Shown here: positions 2,870 through 43,101 of the stretch, piece by piece
How the letters are laid out: every line of letters begins with the position of its first letter
Numbering within the stretch: the first letter of the stretch is position 1
DNA from: a virus
IMG/VR virus record: IMGVR_UViG_3300009954_000001
Span: 1-49,454 of that record
Direction: 5' to 3' (one strand)
Length of the DNA: 49,454 nt
The notes under the pieces: model-generated
Databases searched by the model: none
Told to the model about the DNA's origin: nothing
The model's input: the letters and a program-made list of their open reading frames with translations, nothing else
Position numbers and translations under genes: made by a program

Positions 2870-3112
2870 ATGTTGCCTAATTGGTATGGTATCCCCGGTA
2901 TCGGCTTTGAGTGGCGTGGTTCCCAAAGTGACCCGATGTTGCATTACAAGGGGCATGTGTTTAACGCCCATGACATGCAAGATGGGTTGTGGGAGAACTA
3001 CCAGGAAGATCTGGAAACAGGGTATACGTCCCTTGAGTGGGAGGAATATGTCAGGGACAACGCAACTGACTACCTTGACGATGCACTATTTTTTGAGCGG
3101 GAGGAATGGTAA
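2870..3112 (+). CDS. Hypothetical protein (80 aa)
   Basis: ATG 2870 after gaaagtgag. GTG 2858 is an alternative start. Confidence 0.6.
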   Translation: MLPNWYGIPGIGFEWRGSQSDPMLHYKGHVFNAHDMQDGLWENYQEDLETGYTSLEWEEYVRDNATDYLDDALFFEREEW

Positions 3113-3114
3113 AC

Positions 3115-3495
3115 ATGTGGGAAGAATTGCTGAGCGTCATTAGTGACCGTTACTATCCGCTTGAATCCATGCAGGAACACACGGCAGGCTATATTGACCT
3201 TGACCAAGGTTGGGACCTAACACGTGTTAACCCTTGGTTTACTGAGCGCGGCTATGAGTTTGTGGGACTACTTGACCTGTTCTCTGAGAATGAGCCTAGC
3301 GGCGTGTACGTGAATGTTGACGGGTACGTATGGCGTTGTCGCACTAACGCCGCTGACAATAGCCTATATTGGTACTGGCAGTCAGACAACGAGGGCATTA
3401 CACTGGATGACTTTAAGTTCCTGCATGGATATGCGCACCAGTTTATCTGGGACAACGACACAAAGACATGTGAAGTAATCAACATGGCAGAATGA
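3115..3495 (+). CDS. Hypothetical protein (126 aa)
   Basis: ATG 3115 lies 10 nt after GGGAGGA. ATG 3106 is an alternative start. Confidence 0.6.
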   Translation: MWEELLSVISDRYYPLESMQEHTAGYIDLDQGWDLTRVNPWFTERGYEFVGLLDLFSENEPSGVYVNVDGYVWRCRTNAADNSLYWYWQSDNEGITLDDFKFLHGYAHQFIWDNDTKTCEVINMAE

Positions 3496-31874: not shown

Positions 31875-32747
31875 TCACCAACCAATCTTTCCGAAAGTGT
31901 CTTCGTTCTTTTCGACAACAGGGGTGGCAGTCGCAGCGACAGCCTCCTTCAGATACGCACGCTCAGCCTCAAGAGCAGACTCGACATCCGCACCCTTCTT
32001 CACAGCCTCACGAACACGCGCGACAGCTGCCTCCGGCAACCCGGACTCAGCAATCTTCTTACCGGCCTCAAGGACAGAATCGACATCCACGGATGCCTCT
32101 TCGGCCTTCTCAGCAGGTTCCTCCACCTTGGCCTCCTGAAGAGCAGCCACAGCAGATTCTAGCTTAGAGCCGATAGCTTCACCAAGAGAAGCAATCTCGC
32201 CCTTCAGCTCATCGAACTTGGACTCAAGCAGCTTCTCGTCCACAGTTCCCTCCTTAATAGAATTGTTGTTCCTATTTGATTCTAGCAGATCAACAATGGC
32301 ACCACCCGCACCGGGCGCGGTAACAAAGTCAACCGACCTAACGCCAGCAAAAACAGGAACAACACCTGTTTCCGCAATTGGCTCGTTGCACCAAGCATTG
32401 ATGGAAACACCGATATGCTCCCACTTATCCTTGATTAGCTCGTTAATACCCGAGAATACTTTGCATACAGTGTAGAGTGCGCCATCCTCACCAACCGTCG
32501 CGTCTTCCAAAAACACGCCAGCATAGTCACGAATAGAACGCTCCGGGCGCTCCCATTCCTCAGTCTCAGTTGGATGGTCAATAAACATTTCCGTGCCCGC
32601 CTTAAACAAAGGCGCAGACTCAGCCAAGTTCTCAGCAGTGTAAATACCACTCGAACCCTGGCCGGGCACGATAATGCGGATGCGGTACTTACCCTCACCA
32701 AGAGACTCAGTACCGACAGCCGCAGTTGACTCATGCAACTTAAGCAT
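31875..32747 (-). CDS. Scaffolding protein, possibly fused to a maturation protease domain (290 aa)
   Basis: ATG 32747. The N-terminal half is globular and the C-terminal half is an Ala/Glu/Lys coiled-coil. It lies between the portal and capsid genes. Confidence 0.5.
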   Translation of the reverse strand: MLKLHESTAAVGTESLGEGKYRIRIIVPGQGSSGIYTAENLAESAPLFKAGTEMFIDHPTETEEWERPERSIRDYAGVFLEDATVGEDGALYTVCKVFSGINELIKDKWEHIGVSINAWCNEPIAETGVVPVFAGVRSVDFVTAPGAGGAIVDLLESNRNNNSIKEGTVDEKLLESKFDELKGEIASLGEAIGSKLESAVAALQEAKVEEPAEKAEEASVDVDSVLEAGKKIAESGLPEAAVARVREAVKKGADVESALEAERAYLKEAVAATATPVVEKNEDTFGKIGW

Positions 32748-34092
32748 CAGTCCCCCTATCTCGGTTGTCGTTCGTTCCATCTGACAACGGGCCGACACCC
32801 GTTGCGCGCCCGTCATCCTTATTGCTGTCGTCGGGGCTGTCCGTGTTGGTATCTGTGCCGTCTTCGTCCTTGCCCTCATCCGGCAACTCCGGCAAATCTT
32901 CCAACGGCAAAGAACCAGCAATCTTCAAGAGCTGCAACACACCCGAACGCATCTCAATCTGATGCAAAGCACCGTTCTGATACGCGAGCGTTAGAGATTG
33001 GATGCGGCGGTGAGTCTGGTCATTATTGATCGAACCGTACTCGATCTGCACCTTAATGCCGAGAGCCGCAGCAATCTCATTCAGCATGTCGATATGGAGT
33101 TGACGGCGCAATTCCAACGCCTTAAACGTCGGGTCTTCAAGCGCAGTCTCAGCGCCCTGTCGGCCACCCGCAGAACCATCAGTCAGCAACACCGACAAGG
33201 GGATGTCGAGAGCAGCCGACACCATAGCCGCAAGAGGCGTACCAGCCGAGAAATCAATCCCAGCGCCAGCCTTGTTAATTGCCTGAATATCCTGCCCAGC
33301 ACCAATGTTCGCAGTGCCACCGACACCGGGACCAGCCATACGCTGCTGAACGGCCTGTTGCTGCTTAGAATTAACGCTCGTTGCCTTGAAGGCCAGCTTA
33401 GCGAGAGACTTCTCCATGAGGTGTGCGACCTCAAGATGCTCCTTGTACTTCTGTGCATACGACATAGCGCTCATGAGATCAGGCTTACCGTACTGTTCAG
33501 CAGCAAGGCGATTCACGGTCGCATACACAGCCGTCAAGCGCTTGTTCACCTTGTAGTTAGTCTTAGTGATCTTCACGCTCACGCGGTCCCACAGCATGTA
33601 CCACTGAGGCTCACCACTTACGACAGGGTTGATCAGGAGCGCAACGACATCACCTGTCGCATCATCAGTAGCCACACCAGCAAGGCGCATCAACGGAACA
33701 GGTGTAACAGTCTTTGTCGCCTTATCCACAAGATAAATGACGCAACCGTCAGTGTTGAAAGACTGCTCATCACGAACACGCGCCTGCACACTGAAACAAG
33801 CCTTCGCGTTTTCATCAATCACCTTACGAGAAGGTCCAGTAGAACCCTTGTAGACAACAGGGTCGCCCCACATGTAAGCGTTACGCACAACCAGGCCACG
33901 CTTCACAATAGGGTTAAGAGTAGCCAAACGGCGCGCACGCGCCGAATGGTCCCTAATCACATCAAGAGTAATCAGAGAATCAGGGCCTTCGACAGCAGAC
34001 AAAGGCAACCAGCCCGCATCTTCTCGCTTGAGACGCGCTAGGGTATCAGAAAAAGACCCTAGCGCTTCTTGGAATGTCTGCTCATACTTCAT
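32740..34092 (-). CDS. Portal protein (450 aa)
   Basis: Immediately downstream of TerL. Size fits and the C-terminal tail is acidic. Confidence 0.8.
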   Translation of the reverse strand: MKYEQTFQEALGSFSDTLARLKREDAGWLPLSAVEGPDSLITLDVIRDHSARARRLATLNPIVKRGLVVRNAYMWGDPVVYKGSTGPSRKVIDENAKACFSVQARVRDEQSFNTDGCVIYLVDKATKTVTPVPLMRLAGVATDDATGDVVALLINPVVSGEPQWYMLWDRVSVKITKTNYKVNKRLTAVYATVNRLAAEQYGKPDLMSAMSYAQKYKEHLEVAHLMEKSLAKLAFKATSVNSKQQQAVQQRMAGPGVGGTANIGAGQDIQAINKAGAGIDFSAGTPLAAMVSAALDIPLSVLLTDGSAGGRQGAETALEDPTFKALELRRQLHIDMLNEIAAALGIKVQIEYGSINNDQTHRRIQSLTLAYQNGALHQIEMRSGVLQLLKIAGSLPLEDLPELPDEGKDEDGTDTNTDSPDDSNKDDGRATGVGPLSDGTNDNRDRGTDA

Positions 34093-34105: not shown

Positions 34106-36049
34106 TCACGCTAGAAATACAGACAACTCTTCCTCGAACATGAAGTCCAAGAGGTCATCTTCTTCTAGTAGATCATCAGGTGAATAGTACTGACCTTCTG
34201 AATCACCGGCCATAATGGCTCCAATATTCTGGTACGCATAAATGACAGCATCAAGAACGTCAGGCGACTTAATGCCACGCTTGCGCATATTTTCCTTCGA
34301 TTCGATGAGCATTGCTGACCCACGATACTCGTACTTAATCGAAGCAATTTCATTGTGGAGTTTATCGTCATCGGGCAGGAAGACACGACCATCAGCGACA
34401 GCCTTAGCGAACTGATCGTACATAGCGGCGCGATAGTTGTACCACTTAGTGCTATCACCGGACTTCGCGTTACCGTGAATACCAACGACAGAAATGTCAG
34501 CGGGCACGAAATTGTAGATACTATCGAGAACGGATGCGCCAACACCGATAGCGTCAATACGAATCTCGACAGCCCCGAGTTCGACTGCCAGCTCACCAAC
34601 CTTACGGGCAAGCTCAGGACCGTTCAAGCCTTGGTAACGCCCATGAATCTTGATGTAACCGCCTTGGTTCGACACAATCACTGAGCTGTCGGACCCATAA
34701 CGGGCAACGTCAACACCGAGAACAATCGGCATACCCTCGTCAGGTTCAGAAGTGTCGTAAGCCTCCATCGACTGCATGACGCGGCCCATGTTGAACAGGC
34801 CGTCGTCAGACACGTCTGGGAACTCACCGAGGACACGCGCTACGAAACGGGGGTCATCCTCGCCCCATTCCTTCTTACGTGCCTCAACCCAGTCAACCTG
34901 CACAAGACGAGTCGCAACCTCGACAGGTACGACCTCACCCGTGAAATTAGGCGTGTCGTACGCGCCGAATTGGATGATGTTCCAGGAGCGCTCTTCAGGC
35001 TTCAGGCGCATCTCCCGCTTGAACACCTCGGCCATGTAGCACGACGGGTCGTTAGGGTTAGCAATAGCCAAGATGCGTGCATACTTGTTGGTCGTAATTG
35101 CGTCAGCAGCGGTGAAGATTTCCTTGGAGATACCACCCGCCTCGTCCATAATCACTAGGACGTACTGGTCGTGGACACCTTGAAAACCCGACTCGTCCTT
35201 ATCGTCCGGCTTCATACCGAAAGCGATAGGGTCTTGTCGGTATCCCATCTTCCATGTTGCGTCGGCGCTAACCTTGCCACCAATACCAGCATCGGCCTTG
35301 ACACGAGGAATCTCTTTCCACAGAACGTTGCGGACCTGTTTCCAGTTCGTTGCCGTGGTGACGACTGTCGTGTCATCGACAGGGTGTGTGTCTACCCACC
35401 AGTTAACGAGCGTTGCCGAGAGTCGGCTGTTGTGCGTAGGGATGCACCACTGGCTCACCTGGTACAAGTGACGTGGTGAGTCTACCTCGATACACTGTGT
35501 CGGCTCTGTTGGCGCACCTTGAATAGCAACGACACACCAATGTCCTTCTTCGCCACCGGCCTTCGGAATACGATCTCCAATATGTAGGTCGCGTGTTTCG
35601 ACAACAACCGTGTCGTCCCACCTAGTTTTGCCGTAAACAAGAAAGTCTGCCGAACGAATGACAGCCCACTCGTGGGCTTCTGGGCAGATAACCTCTGCAC
35701 CGTCGTTAAAGATGACCTTAACCAGCGGAATGTTCCACACAGGTGACTTAGCAACAACCTTGGTCGGATTACCAAGTTCGTCAAGGACATAGTCACCGAT
35801 GCGAAGTTCACCCATTGTCGTCCAGCCAGTAGGCGTTGGTATAGGTTCTGTCAACTTGACAGCTTTGCCTACGCCATTGCCCGTAACCACAAGCGTCTTT
35901 TGGTGCTCTACAACTGACTGAGCAACTTCACGTTGCTTAGACCACATGAACAGACCGTGATCCTCAGCCCACTTGGCAGGATTATTACGCCACACTTCAA
36001 GACGCTGAGCATCTGAGAATTTCTTAGCGACAGCACCGAAAGGCAGCAT
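34106..36049 (-). CDS. terL: Terminase large subunit, intein-containing precursor (647 aa)
   Basis: Walker A GNGVGK//S is split by the insert. Walker B is YVLVIMDEAGG. The C-terminal nuclease region has GVDVARYGSD. Confidence 0.9.
   Translation of the reverse strand: MLPFGAVAKKFSDAQRLEVWRNNPAKWAEDHGLFMWSKQREVAQSVVEHQKTLVVTGNGVGKAVKLTEPIPTPTGWTTMGELRIGDYVLDELGNPTKVVAKSPVWNIPLVKVIFNDGAEVICPEAHEWAVIRSADFLVYGKTRWDDTVVVETRDLHIGDRIPKAGGEEGHWCVVAIQGAPTEPTQCIEVDSPRHLYQVSQWCIPTHNSRLSATLVNWWVDTHPVDDTTVVTTATNWKQVRNVLWKEIPRVKADAGIGGKVSADATWKMGYRQDPIAFGMKPDDKDESGFQGVHDQYVLVIMDEAGGISKEIFTAADAITTNKYARILAIANPNDPSCYMAEVFKREMRLKPEERSWNIIQFGAYDTPNFTGEVVPVEVATRLVQVDWVEARKKEWGEDDPRFVARVLGEFPDVSDDGLFNMGRVMQSMEAYDTSEPDEGMPIVLGVDVARYGSDSSVIVSNQGGYIKIHGRYQGLNGPELARKVGELAVELGAVEIRIDAIGVGASVLDSIYNFVPADISVVGIHGNAKSGDSTKWYNYRAAMYDQFAKAVADGRVFLPDDDKLHNEIASIKYEYRGSAMLIESKENMRKRGIKSPDVLDAVIYAYQNIGAIMAGDSEGQYYSPDDLLEEDDLLDFMFEEELSVFLA
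35429..35863 (-). mobile_element. Mini-intein (145 aa, class-3-like) in the TerL P-loop
   Basis: Spans A63-N207. Block A is AVKLTEPIPTPTGW, block B is PEAHEW, block F is TQCIEVDSPRHLY and block G is IPTHN followed by +1 Ser. Excision restores GNGVGKS. Confidence 0.8.
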
Positions 36050-36633
36050 CAGTCACCCTCAACTTCCACAGTCGCCTCAAGCAACGCGGCAGGCTTGTTT
36101 ACAGCCTGAGAAAACCAATCAGCCTTATTCGTCTCCAAAGCCTTCTTAGCCTTAGCCGACAAGTGCGGATACATGAGCGCCGTATACTCTTCGAGCACCT
36201 GATTAGTGAACGACAGCATGATGTTCACTTGCTTCTCTTCGATCACACGAATCTCATGCGTCACCGTCTGACGCTTCAGGTTCGCAACCTCGGAGATTTC
36301 ACGCAGAACAGCGAGAACAGCCTGAAGGTTCTGCCCCCAGTTACCCTTCTCGTCAGCAAGGCCGAACATCCCGATCTGGCTGTAAGCCATGTCAACAAGC
36401 GCATCAAGACGATCAAGCTGCTTGATGCGCATATTGCGAGGCGACAACTCCTGTCGGCTGTCGTAGTACGACTGCTCGATAACGAACAGTTCTTCAGACG
36501 TGAAACCTGTCGACTGAATAATCTTGTTTCGCTCTGTGCCGCGCTTTAGCAGCGACAAAGCCATGTCGCGCTTACCCCGCAGCTCCGGGTCATCACTCGT
36601 CAGCAAATCGCGCGAGTTCGTCTTGGATACCAT
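36049..36633 (-). CDS. terS: Terminase small subunit (by position, 194 aa)
   Basis: ATG 36633 lies 6 nt after AAGGAGG. TGATG coupling to terL. Confidence 0.6.
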   Translation of the reverse strand: MVSKTNSRDLLTSDDPELRGKRDMALSLLKRGTERNKIIQSTGFTSEELFVIEQSYYDSRQELSPRNMRIKQLDRLDALVDMAYSQIGMFGLADEKGNWGQNLQAVLAVLREISEVANLKRQTVTHEIRVIEEKQVNIMLSFTNQVLEEYTALMYPHLSAKAKKALETNKADWFSQAVNKPAALLEATVEVEGD

Positions 36634-36745
36634 CAAGCACCTCCTTCACAGCCTTCTGGAACTTGTTGTCCAAGTACACGTAAGTACAAGCAGCACCGGC
36701 AATCAAGCCAGCGGCGAGACCAACCAAAAACCAGGCAATGAGCAT
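36593..36745 (-). CDS. Small single-TM protein (50 aa)
   Basis: ATG 36745 after AAGGAGG. The TM segment is LIAWFLVGLAAGLIAGAACTYVYL. Confidence 0.45.
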   Translation of the reverse strand: MLIAWFLVGLAAGLIAGAACTYVYLDNKFQKAVKEVLDGIQDELARFADE

Positions 36746-37805: not shown

Positions 37806-38831
37806 TTACTTAGATTCTACCAGCTTCACGATGCCATCAGCGTCCTGCTCGACAACCAGCTTACCGACAATCAGCTTGCCGTCCTCACCGAAAATCGAGC
37901 AAGCGCCGTCGAGACGGGTCTGGCACAGTCCGACAGCCATAGCGCCCGATTCCGTGAGGAAGTAGTCGCTGCCGTTGTACGACAGCCAGCCGGTGCGCAT
38001 AGCGCCGTTTTCCTCAAGGTAGTACCACTTGCTCTTGACGAGCTGCCAGCCGGTCTGCATCTGCCCCTTGTCGTTCAAGAGGAACCAGTGCTCACCGACC
38101 TTCACCCAGCCAGTCTCCATCTCACCATAACGCCCATCGTGGACATCATGCAGGAAATACCAGTGACCATCGACGTGCTGCCAACCGAACTGCAACCAGC
38201 CCTTCTCGTTAGCGTAGTACCACTTGTCGCCCACAGGGAACCAGCCAGTTTCGTAGCCACCGTCTTCAGTACGGTACCACCAACCACCATTCTGCGACAC
38301 CCAACCCTCCTTCTCGGACAGGTCAGCATCAAGGTTGTCGTAATACTGCTGGGCCTTCTCGATGTACTCGTTCGCATACGTGTCACGCAGCGAGGCAGGG
38401 CACATCGTGGAGTAGAAGTCGCTGTGGGGGAACACATTGACTCGCCACTCAGGACGACCCAGACCATACGCACGACACAGAGCAGCAGTCAGATGCGCGC
38501 CCGCGTCGATGGTGGCCTCACCGACATCCCAGCCGCCCTCAGCGCCCGTCGAGTTCGCGTGCTCAATGCCAATCGACAGCTTGTTCACACCTGGGCAGTG
38601 CCATGCAGTATCCCAGTCGTGGACATACTGCGCAATAGCGCCGTTGATGTCAACATCGTAGTGCGCAGACGTACCATTGCCGCTGAAGGCACCGTACACA
38701 TCTTGGTGCGACATGGCCTTGCCAGCGTTGTGGTGGATGATGATGCGGTCAATAGCGTTGCCACCACGGCCCGCATCGAAATTGTCGATCCACAGGTTGT
38801 AGTCGGCGGTCAGGTCAGTCCAACTGATCAT
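37806..38831 (-). CDS. Endolysin: N-acetylmuramoyl-L-alanine amidase + choline-binding-type (CW_binding_1) repeats
   Basis: Amidase_2 signatures IIIHHNAG and HSDF..TMCP. About six GW-x-Y/F repeats (e.g. TGWVKVGEHWFLLNDKGQMQ). Confidence 0.9.
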   Translation of the reverse strand: MISWTDLTADYNLWIDNFDAGRGGNAIDRIIIHHNAGKAMSHQDVYGAFSGNGTSAHYDVDINGAIAQYVHDWDTAWHCPGVNKLSIGIEHANSTGAEGGWDVGEATIDAGAHLTAALCRAYGLGRPEWRVNVFPHSDFYSTMCPASLRDTYANEYIEKAQQYYDNLDADLSEKEGWVSQNGGWWYRTEDGGYETGWFPVGDKWYYANEKGWLQFGWQHVDGHWYFLHDVHDGRYGEMETGWVKVGEHWFLLNDKGQMQTGWQLVKSKWYYLEENGAMRTGWLSYNGSDYFLTESGAMAVGLCQTRLDGACSIFGEDGKLIVGKLVVEQDADGIVKLVESK

Positions 38832-42553: not shown

Positions 42554-42638
42554 TGCCACCTGACCAGGGTAGCCCAGCTCTTCGATGGAAGTCTTGGTCG
42601 TGACACTTTGTGCTATCGAGCAACCTCATCGTCAAGCG

Positions 42639-42709
42639 CTCCCAGACTAGGACTCGAACCTAGTCCGACAGGGCCAGAACCTGCCGTGCTGCCATTACAC
42701 TATCTGGGA
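42639..42709 (-). tRNA. tRNA-Gln (anticodon CTG)
   Basis: Hand fold: acceptor tcccaga/tctggga, D stem gtgt/gcac, anticodon stem gcagg/cctgt with loop ttCTGgc, T-arm ctagg-TTCGAGT-cctag. Confidence 0.85.
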
Positions 42710-42784
42710 TAAAGGCTGGGTAGTCCCGGAGGACACCCAGCAGCTAGGTAGTTACACTTGTGTAACTACAGGCAATACTGCCCG

Positions 42785-42857
42785 TCGGAATGGTGAGACT
42801 CGAACTCACGACCCCCTGGTCCCAAACCAGGTGCGCTGCCTACTGCGCTACATTCCG
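42785..42857 (-). tRNA. tRNA-Pro (anticodon TGG)
   Basis: Acceptor cggaatg/cattccg, D stem gcgc/gcgc, anticodon stem cctgg/ccagg with loop ttTGGga, T-arm gtgag-TTCGAGT-ctcac. Confidence 0.9.
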
Positions 42858-43016
42858 TTGGTGGGGGTGCTATTCGGACGACAGAAACACACACAAAAAA
42901 GTGTCGTCCCTAGGGTGCTACCCCGCACGTGACCCCCGTCACGGCAACCGGCACGTCCTCTTGATCAGAGAGGCAGGCAGCTATGGCCTAATCATCCAGC
43001 ATCGTCCGGTGCTTGG

Positions 43017-43101
43017 TGGTCCCCTCGGTGAGAGTCGAACTCACACTCCTTTCGGAACCCGGGTTTGAGCCGAGCGCGTCTGCCTGTTCCGCCACAAGGG
43101 G
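43017..43101 (-). tRNA. tRNA-Leu (anticodon CAA), class II, CCA encoded
   Basis: Acceptor ccccttg/cgagggg, anticodon loop ctCAAac, long variable arm ttccgaaaggagt, T-arm gtgag-TTCGACT-ctcac, followed by ACCA. Confidence 0.9.

Follow-up and report, generated by a model that had tools for sequence, protein, structure and literature searches.

A probable class 3 mini-intein of the mycobacterial DnaB-1 lineage in the Walker A motif of an uncultured phage terminase

Background

How can a phage package its DNA when the gene for its packaging ATPase encodes a phosphate-binding loop that is cut in two? The question is raised by IMG/VR virus record IMGVR_UViG_3300009954_000001, analysed here over its positions 1 to 49,454 (49,454 nucleotides; hereafter, the window), in which the Walker A motif, or P-loop, of the large terminase subunit (TerL) is interrupted between its Lys and Ser by a segment of 435 nucleotides (nt) that encodes 145 amino acids (aa). 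A first-pass annotation, made from the sequence alone, had read this segment as a class 3 mini-intein, and we conclude that it is very probably one, belonging to the lineage of the mycobacterial DnaB-1 (DnaB-b) inteins. What defines class 3 inteins is a residue 1 that is not a nucleophile, in co-variation with Trp at position B:12, Cys at F:4 and Thr at G:5 (the WCT triplet), combined with Ser or Thr as the first residue (+1) of the C-extein (PMC2807308).

Results and discussion

An exact insertion between the Walker A Lys and Ser

The interrupted gene lies on the minus strand of the window and is dissected as follows; here and below, a slash in a motif marks an intein junction.

34106..36049, minus: TerL precursor open reading frame (ORF), large terminase with intein, 647 aa plus stop codon (from the ORF list)
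35864..36049, minus: N-extein M1-K62, ending in the first part of Walker A (translation and alignment with intein-less alleles)
35864-35881, minus: first part of Walker A, G57-N-G-V-G-K62; G61 and K62 invariant across 16 aligned TerLs
35429..35863, minus: probable class 3 mini-intein, 145 aa, precursor A63-N207 (intein numbering 1-145), from PDB homology, fold and exact indel
35666..35674, minus: block B His64-Glu65-Trp66 (precursor H126, E127, W128); the His is catalytic B:10, the Trp is B:12, W of WCT
35492..35494, minus: block F Cys124 (precursor C186), F:4, the predicted initiating nucleophile, from position and alignment
35429..35437, minus: block G Thr143 (G:5, T of WCT), His144 and the cyclising Asn145 (precursor T205-H206-N207), from translation
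35426..35428, minus: Ser+1 (precursor S208), the C-extein nucleophile, which after splicing would be the Walker A Ser (GK-S)
34106..35428, minus: C-extein S208-A647 plus stop codon, with Walker B and a C-terminal RNaseH-like nuclease domain
35132-35164, minus: Walker B, Y296-G306 (YVLVIMDEAGG); D302, E303, A304, G305 and G306 invariant in the TerL alignment

The protein is identified as TerL by its matches to PHROG large-terminase families (phrog_2 at 3.5e-23, phrog_15 at 1.7e-17), by the Walker A motif that emerges when the insert is removed, by the invariant Walker B motif and by its place in a packaging gene cluster, together with a weak Pfam match to the Terminase_6C nuclease domain at precursor residues 456-608. 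Translation of the ORF re-derived the codon positions on both sides of the insert (K62 at 35864-35866, A63 at 35861-35863, N207 at 35429-35431, S208 at 35426-35428), and the flanks without the 435 nt add up to an extein-only TerL of 502 aa. Only this extein-only product, and not the precursor, yields Pfam P-loop matches (AAA_19 and AAA_30, residues 39-183), which are themselves weak (E~1e-3, below the gathering cut-offs). The G+C content of the insert (0.52) is the same as that of the exteins and of the whole window, and its G+C content at third codon positions is slightly lower (0.50 vs 0.57).

Natural controls are provided by the relatives of this gene, which we searched for in a collection of 5.8 billion proteins. 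Close TerL relatives fall into four discrete length classes, ~502, 647, ~720 and ~854 aa, which are collinear, have exteins that are 90-96% identical and differ, in the alignment, solely in what sits between the Walker A Lys and Ser. Among the 71 closest relatives with parsable junctions, the 145-aa insert is present in 36 (the window and 35 database proteins), 16 have no insert, and the remainder carry inserts of ~220 aa (6 proteins) or of 306-352 aa (13 proteins). The intein-less alleles, 500-507 and mostly 502 aa long, read GNG[ACTV]GK/S[RY]LSA at this site, with the Ser that corresponds to S208, invariant in the TerL alignment, directly after GK; some, such as LVVTGNGAGK/SRLSATLVNWW, display exactly the junction that the first-pass annotation had predicted. 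At the DNA level, the window was aligned with the empty alleles L001 and L004 and with L003, an allele of the 352-aa form, and the alignment reveals an exact 435-nt in-frame gap between Lys codons (AAA or AAG) and Ser codons (AGC or TCA). The sibling contigs are syntenic phages of ~50 kb, in which a 194-aa gene, TerL, portal, protease and capsid genes follow one another, on to the tape measure gene.

These comparisons uphold the first-pass dissection of the locus. Its boundaries for the insert (A63-N207, 35429-35863) are reproduced to the nucleotide by independent translation and DNA alignment, the strings that it quoted (LVVTGNGVGK/AVKLTEPIPTPTGW, PEAHEW, TQCIEVDSPRHLY, PTHN/SRLSATLVNWW and YVLVIMDEAGG) are all found in the translation, and the rebuilt GNGVGK-S loop and the spliced length of 502 aa correspond to what the intein-less alleles show. 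It had proposed an alignment of the extein-only TerL against intein-less homologues, with which it proved collinear; the 16 alleles that lack the 145 residues, along with the lack of a second P-loop in the protein, contradict the refuting scenario that it had named, in which homologues keep the segment as an ordinary domain and have their P-loop elsewhere.

Sequence and fold of the insert

Compared alone with the PDB using phmmer, the insert matches two DnaB-1 inteins, those of Mycobacterium smegmatis (Msm DnaBi1; 6BS8, E=1.7e-21, full length) and M. chimaera (Mch; 6RIX, E=2.2e-21, end to end), both of which are solved class 3 inteins (PMC6195587, PMC7664689). An AlphaFold2 model built with 32 family members (mean pLDDT 96.5, pTM 0.88) folds the insert into one compact, beta-rich domain with the all-beta HINT topology. 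In a Foldseek search with this model, the top 7 matches are the class 3 DnaB intein chains of 6BS8 and 6RIX (TM 0.77-0.92), followed by gp41-1; 48 PDB matches have E<=1e-3, and the best-ranked 50 are all inteins, BIL or Hedgehog HINT domains, so that model and search agree in giving the insert a HINT fold. In the PHROG scan, the insert alone matches long TerL, primase and helicase-loader profiles, as expected of a mobile element that is common to those families.

The insert consists of the splicing domain only, which is to say that it is a mini-intein. The absence of a homing endonuclease (HEN) domain, stated in the first-pass annotation, holds for this compact domain of 145 aa, for which Pfam, NCBIfam and PHROG scans returned no HEN family match; furthermore, the ORF list for the intein DNA contains no small alternative-frame or antisense ORF that is long enough, or suitably placed, for a free-standing HEN. 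A hidden Markov model made from 82 inteins of the family found no second intein among all six-frame ORFs of the window, where the other xHN[STC] motifs lack block F context.

The class 3 signature

All elements of the class 3 definition can be located in the insert, which carries Ala1, His64, Trp66, Cys124, Thr143, His144-Asn145 and Ser+1, with His64 supplying the block B His (B:10) of the predicted Cys-His-Thr triad. The residues His64, Trp66, Cys124 and Thr143 align, with near-identical numbering, with His65, Trp67, Cys124 and Thr143 of the Mch intein (PMC7664689), and the catalytic residues likewise align with His65, Cys118 and Thr137 of Msm DnaBi1, in which the C118A substitution abolishes splicing (PMC6195587). 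Thus, the non-nucleophilic Ala1, the WCT triplet and the HN/S junction noticed in the first pass are all confirmed by translation and by alignment to class 3 structures.

The signature is maintained across considerable divergence. The 36 copies of the 145-aa intein are 70-100% identical in pairwise comparisons (mean 83%), and H64, W66, C124, T143, H144, N145 and S+1 are invariant in all of them, while residue 1 is dimorphic, with 21 Ala and 15 Asp. In a broader set of 82 aligned relatives, which includes HEN-bearing forms as well as Msm and Mch DnaBi1, H64, W66 and C124 are again invariant and residue 1 is Ala (47), Asp (23) or Gly (12), and never Cys, Ser or Thr; the +1 residue is Ser in 80 and Thr in 2. 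The Thr-His-Asn motif is invariant in this set because it was part of the pattern by which the set was extracted; however, the 35 database inserts of 145 aa, which were delimited independently of that motif, end in PTHN without exception (35/35). The inteins with Gly1 form a more distant clade, and Asp1 is also found in the intein of Clavibacter phage CN1A. Four residues before the block B His lies Cys60 (precursor C122, window 35684-35686), a position that is occupied by Ala in the solved DnaB-1 inteins.

Selection and the predicted splicing pathway

The intein is under strong purifying selection. In Nei-Gojobori comparisons of four divergent genomes that carry the 145-aa intein (the window, L005, L006 and L007), the ratio of nonsynonymous to synonymous substitution rates (dN/dS) is 0.05-0.13 for the intein vs 0.02-0.045 for the exteins, values that are approximate because synonymous divergence (dS) in the intein is near saturation. 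TerL is essential, and it is on splicing that selection would therefore act. Given that the insert splits the P-loop of an essential enzyme, that it is subject to purifying selection and that inteins of the mycobacteriophage terminase family splice in a reporter, splicing of the window TerL intein appears very likely. The reporter experiments in question, those of Kelley et al. 2016, covered five representative terminase-family inteins, all of which spliced readily (PMC5050341).

By homology to the Msm and Mle DnaB-1 inteins and to the DnaB intein of mycobacteriophage Bethlehem (MP-Be DnaB), the pathway would run as follows. The precursor would be translated with a split P-loop and would be unable to work as a packaging ATPase. 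Cys124, presumably activated by His64 with Trp66 and Thr143, would then attack the Lys62-Ala63 peptide bond to give a branched intermediate with a block F thioester, from which the N-extein would be transferred to the hydroxyl of Ser+1. Cyclisation of Asn145 would free the 145-aa intein, and an O-to-N acyl shift would complete a 502-aa TerL in which the GNGVGKS P-loop is intact.

Four allelic states and the homing cycle

The same Lys/Ser site of TerL is found in four states among sibling phages: empty, occupied by the 145-aa mini-intein, by a form of ~220 aa, or by a form of ~352 aa with a HEN of the LAGLIDADG type, which is recognised by PF05204 (Hom_end) at 31.4 bits vs a cut-off of 21.1. 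The middle part of the ~220-aa form has no Pfam match. On a neighbour-joining tree of the exteins alone the four states are intermixed, and Fitch parsimony calls for a minimum of 23 changes over 71 tips, a count that is to be taken only qualitatively, the tree being shallow and confounded by recombination. Mini, HEN-bearing and empty alleles are all represented among the closest extein neighbours of the window, at distances of no more than 3.5%. The residue at position -3, for which Val (GNGVGK), as opposed to Ala, Cys or Thr, was considered as a possible mark of intein-bearing alleles or of homing immunity, was discarded, both states being present in both classes among 120 homologues.

Intein and exteins seem to have had separate histories because synonymous divergence is higher in the intein than in the extein in the window-L005, window-L006 and L005-L006 comparisons, the proportion of synonymous differences between the window and L005 being 0.77 in the intein and 0.45 in the extein. 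Within the intein itself, the linker and the C-terminal half of the mini form are coherent, with 79-100% identity within the form and 52-70% to the HEN form. The N-terminal 66 residues, on the other hand, come in haplotypes that are common to the HEN-bearing inteins, to the point that one mini-intein (P0005) is identical in this part to a HEN-bearing one (P0036). The existence of such mosaics, identical over the N-terminal 66 aa and divergent over the C-terminal 33 aa, implies that recombination breakpoints lie inside the intein. A simple origin of the mini form by recent loss of the HEN from the 352-aa intein with which it co-circulates was rejected, given that identity between the two forms is only 52-70% over the C-terminal 33 aa, as against 79-100% within a form, although the N-terminal halves recombine. 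Judging from these alignments, the mini-intein is a lineage of single origin that recombines with the other forms inside the intein. Purifying selection on splicing most likely maintains the mini-intein, and recombination most likely carries it from one genome to another, which would make it a selfish element that represents one stage in the intein homing cycle.

Weighing the alternatives

Several points speak against the identification of the insert as an active class 3 intein and against the evolutionary scenario built on it. To the near-saturation of synonymous sites and the shallowness of the extein tree, already mentioned, is to be added that we infer both the splicing of the window intein and its chemistry, and that no Hint or intein model matched the insert in the Pfam and NCBIfam scans. 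The last of these might suggest a HINT remnant that has decayed and no longer splices, or else an ordinary inserted domain that TerL tolerates, and a class-3-like intein pseudogene, Arth_1007, with a WDT triplet, has been documented (PMC3196547). We attribute the silence of Pfam and NCBIfam to poor profile coverage of this intein lineage and do not count it as evidence against an intein because the PDB sequence search and the fold search are decisive. A remnant or a tolerated domain would be hard to reconcile with an insert that splits the Walker A GK/S, which is invariant in this TerL family, in a protein where no other P-loop exists and where the extein-only sequence is collinear with intein-less alleles; nor would it explain catalytic residues that are invariant over 36 diverged copies, the low dN/dS, or the location of these copies in ~50-kb, apparently complete phage contigs. 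This explanation, accordingly, appears extremely improbable. An intein that splices by class 1 or class 2 chemistry, without starting from the block F Cys, is also highly improbable. Inteins with Ala1 do exist in class 2 (the KlbA type), and three WCT inteins with Ser1 or Cys1 are known (PMC2807308). Class 1 is excluded, however, because position 1 has no Cys, Ser or Thr here, and throughout the family it is Ala, Asp or Gly; class 2 is excluded because the WCT triplet is present, invariantly so in the family of the window intein, and +1 is Ser, whereas WCT is absent from KlbA inteins, and the demonstration of a direct attack by +1, in Mja KlbA, concerns a Cys at that position. Moreover, the class 2 route is closed to Bvi IcmO, a class 3 intein (PMC5222942).

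A different kind of alternative accepts the class 3 mini-intein and endows it with a physiological role. The first-pass annotation had called the dependence of packaging on splicing a possible post-translational control point, which is a speculation. In its general form, where redox-, metal- or temperature-gated splicing releases the packaging ATPase, as proposed for Msm DnaBi1, gating seems unlikely; a specific version, in which the HEN-less mini-intein is a conditional switch that, for instance through Cys60 with the catalytic Cys124 or through metal binding, keeps the packaging ATPase from maturing until redox or metal conditions in the infected cell become permissive, is a shade less likely still. 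If true, it would be the first case of intein-gated virion assembly. What makes gating worth considering is that Msm DnaBi1, the closest solved relative, is reversibly inhibited by H2O2 via a Cys48-Cys118 disulfide (PMC6195587), that zinc inhibition is reported in related work (PMC7360933), that the P-loop position necessarily renders the precursor inactive, and that the window intein has four Cys residues, of which the non-catalytic Cys60 is invariant in 36/36 mini copies and present in 59/82 relatives. Against this, Msm Cys48 aligns with Leu47 of the window intein, which is Leu in 36/36 copies, so the Msm redox pair was rejected as a transferable mechanism, and two of the other Cys residues vary (Cys110 to R/Y, Cys140 to R/H). 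Intein-less alleles are common in near-identical phages, and the phage therefore needs no such switch; the ready splicing of the five tested terminase-family inteins in the reporter (see above) points the same way. An ungated class 3 mini-intein, propagated by recombination and maintained by selection on splicing, thus remains the reading that we prefer.

Relatives in bacteria and phages

The DnaB-1 inteins Msm DnaBi1 (6BS8, 139 aa), Mch DnaB1 (6RIX, 145 aa) and Mle DnaB (145 aa) resemble the window intein in size class, Ala1 and the lack of a HEN. They, too, are inserted after the Walker A Lys, with Ser+1 being the P-loop Ser (PMC6195587). Identity between the window intein and the DnaB-1 inteins is ~37-38% in the intein alignment and 33-35% in Foldseek structural alignments. 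Unlike them, however, the window intein resides in a phage TerL rather than in a bacterial replicative helicase, the 46-residue stretch that links its blocks B and F is unrelated, Leu replaces Msm Cys48, and Cys60 is specific to its lineage.

An intein scan of 185,579 species genomes recovered relatives of at most ~40% identity over the full intein, overwhelmingly inserts of ~130-156 aa in Actinomycetota. When junctions were translated for 16 bacterial loci, 13 were found to lie in the DnaB Walker A of Actinomycetota (AARPGxGK/ALALDTPLPTP...PTHN/STLGLDF), and the other three (Kocuria, a Pirellulaceae and a Paceibacterota metagenome-assembled genome, MAG) also follow GK in P-loop contexts. The two loci beyond Actinomycetota read PRGGGK/ALALE...PTHN/SKL (L068, Pirellulaceae MAG, 3001-3411) and PPRHGK/ALALS (L076, Paceibacterota MAG, 3001-3216). 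The scan of bacterial genomes turned up no prophage copy and gave no host assignment.

Among phages, the window seems to have no close cultured relative because megablast of terL against 50,697 phage records gave no match; the best annotated TerLs are 33-43% identical to that of the window. The closest intein of a cultured phage, at 47% identity, is that of the TerL of Clavibacter phage CN1A, where gp59 is annotated 'contains intein'. It reads GK/DIALDTPLPTPTGW...HQW...PTQCIRVD...IPTHN/S, with the class 3 signature and the same TerL junction as in the window, and differs in its 299 aa with a LAGLIDADG HEN. Streptomyces phage Kradal (GK/ALGL...HLW...VQCIQVD...IPTHN/S) shares this junction and the class 3 signature as well, in an intein of 268 aa with a degenerate middle. 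The exteins of CN1A and of the Kradal/Frankenweenie-type terminases are only 33-37% identical to the window TerL. Inteins with the class 3 signature at exactly this TerL junction are, then, already present in public cultured phages.

The wider phenomenon has likewise been described. Tori et al. 2010, who defined the class, already recorded WCT or class 3 inteins in the large terminase subunits of phages, for the most part within ATPase P-loops (PMC2807308). The founding class 3 intein of that paper, MP-Be DnaB, agrees with the window intein in having WCT, a non-nucleophilic residue 1 and Ser/Thr+1, and in residing in a P-loop NTPase of a phage, but it has Pro1 and Thr+1, comprises 341 aa with a HEN and is hosted by a helicase. 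In Kelley et al. 2016 (PMC5050341), the Lys/Thr P-loop site of TerL is called a 'classic' intein site, class 3 TerL inteins are linked to the mycobacterial DnaB-b inteins, with which the TerL1-c/-e inteins of mycobacteriophages cluster, and splicing and HEN activity are shown. The mycobacteriophage inteins resemble that of the window in occupying the ATPase domain of TerL, and the TerL1-a site, which like TerL1-b is a P-loop site, similarly lies between the invariant Walker A Lys and a hydroxyl residue; the class 3 groupings of the main text name only TerL1-c, -d and -e, which are outside the P-loop; the assayed TerL1-b and TerL1-c inteins carry HENs, unlike the window intein; and the mycobacteriophage TerLs belong to Terminase_1, whereas the window TerL has its weak match to Terminase_6C. 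The 287 class 3 inteins listed by a 2025 survey of PhagesDB reside mainly in TerL and Cas4 and measure 225-359 aa (bioRxiv 10.1101/2025.01.02.630785), so that all are larger than the 145-aa window intein, which matches the bacterial DnaB-1 minis in this respect.

The departures from what is known are, accordingly, modest: a class 3 TerL intein of mini size, and four allelic states densely sampled in one group of uncultured phages. As a fresh example of an element already described, the locus leaves the current understanding of inteins and terminases unchanged. Its practical import lies, in part, in annotation. The true TerL is 502 aa and not 647 aa long, gene callers and Pfam/NCBIfam profiles miss this intein lineage, and the intein, unless taken out first, will distort any TerL-based phylogeny or clustering of this group of uncultured phages. 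Beyond annotation, the empty, HEN-bearing, intermediate and mini alleles that occupy one site in near-identical phages constitute a compact natural example of the intein homing cycle, and this allele population could serve in studies of the persistence of inteins without an endonuclease in phages. A class 3 intein of 145 aa with a Ser+1 junction is also a possible part for protein engineering, beside the DnaB-1 inteins.

Genome context and host

The window looks like a complete siphovirus genome of ~49.5 kb, whose plus strand encodes helicase, primase and DNA polymerase, while the genes for packaging, head, tail and lysis lie on the minus strand. The following features accompany the interrupted terminase.

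36049..36636, minus: upstream gene of 195 aa in the position of a small terminase; a syntenic 194-aa gene lies upstream of TerL in all sibling contigs
32740..34092, minus: portal protein gene directly downstream of TerL (phrog_10963, 3.4e-70)
42638-43101, minus: cluster of three tRNA genes, Gln(CTG), Pro(TGG) and Leu(CAA)
37806-38831, minus: endolysin that begins with an amidase at its N-terminus; in sibling contigs, its homologues have choline-binding repeats recognised by Pfam

The upstream 195-aa gene has no PHROG match. Its stop codon overlaps the TerL ATG by 1 nt at 36049, which suggests translational coupling. Downstream of TerL, the portal, protease and capsid genes follow. The best cultured match of the endolysin is in Eggerthella phage PMBT5 (43% over 97% of the query), and the window TerL is nearest to the TerLs of actinophages; a human-associated actinobacterial host is plausible from these similarities.

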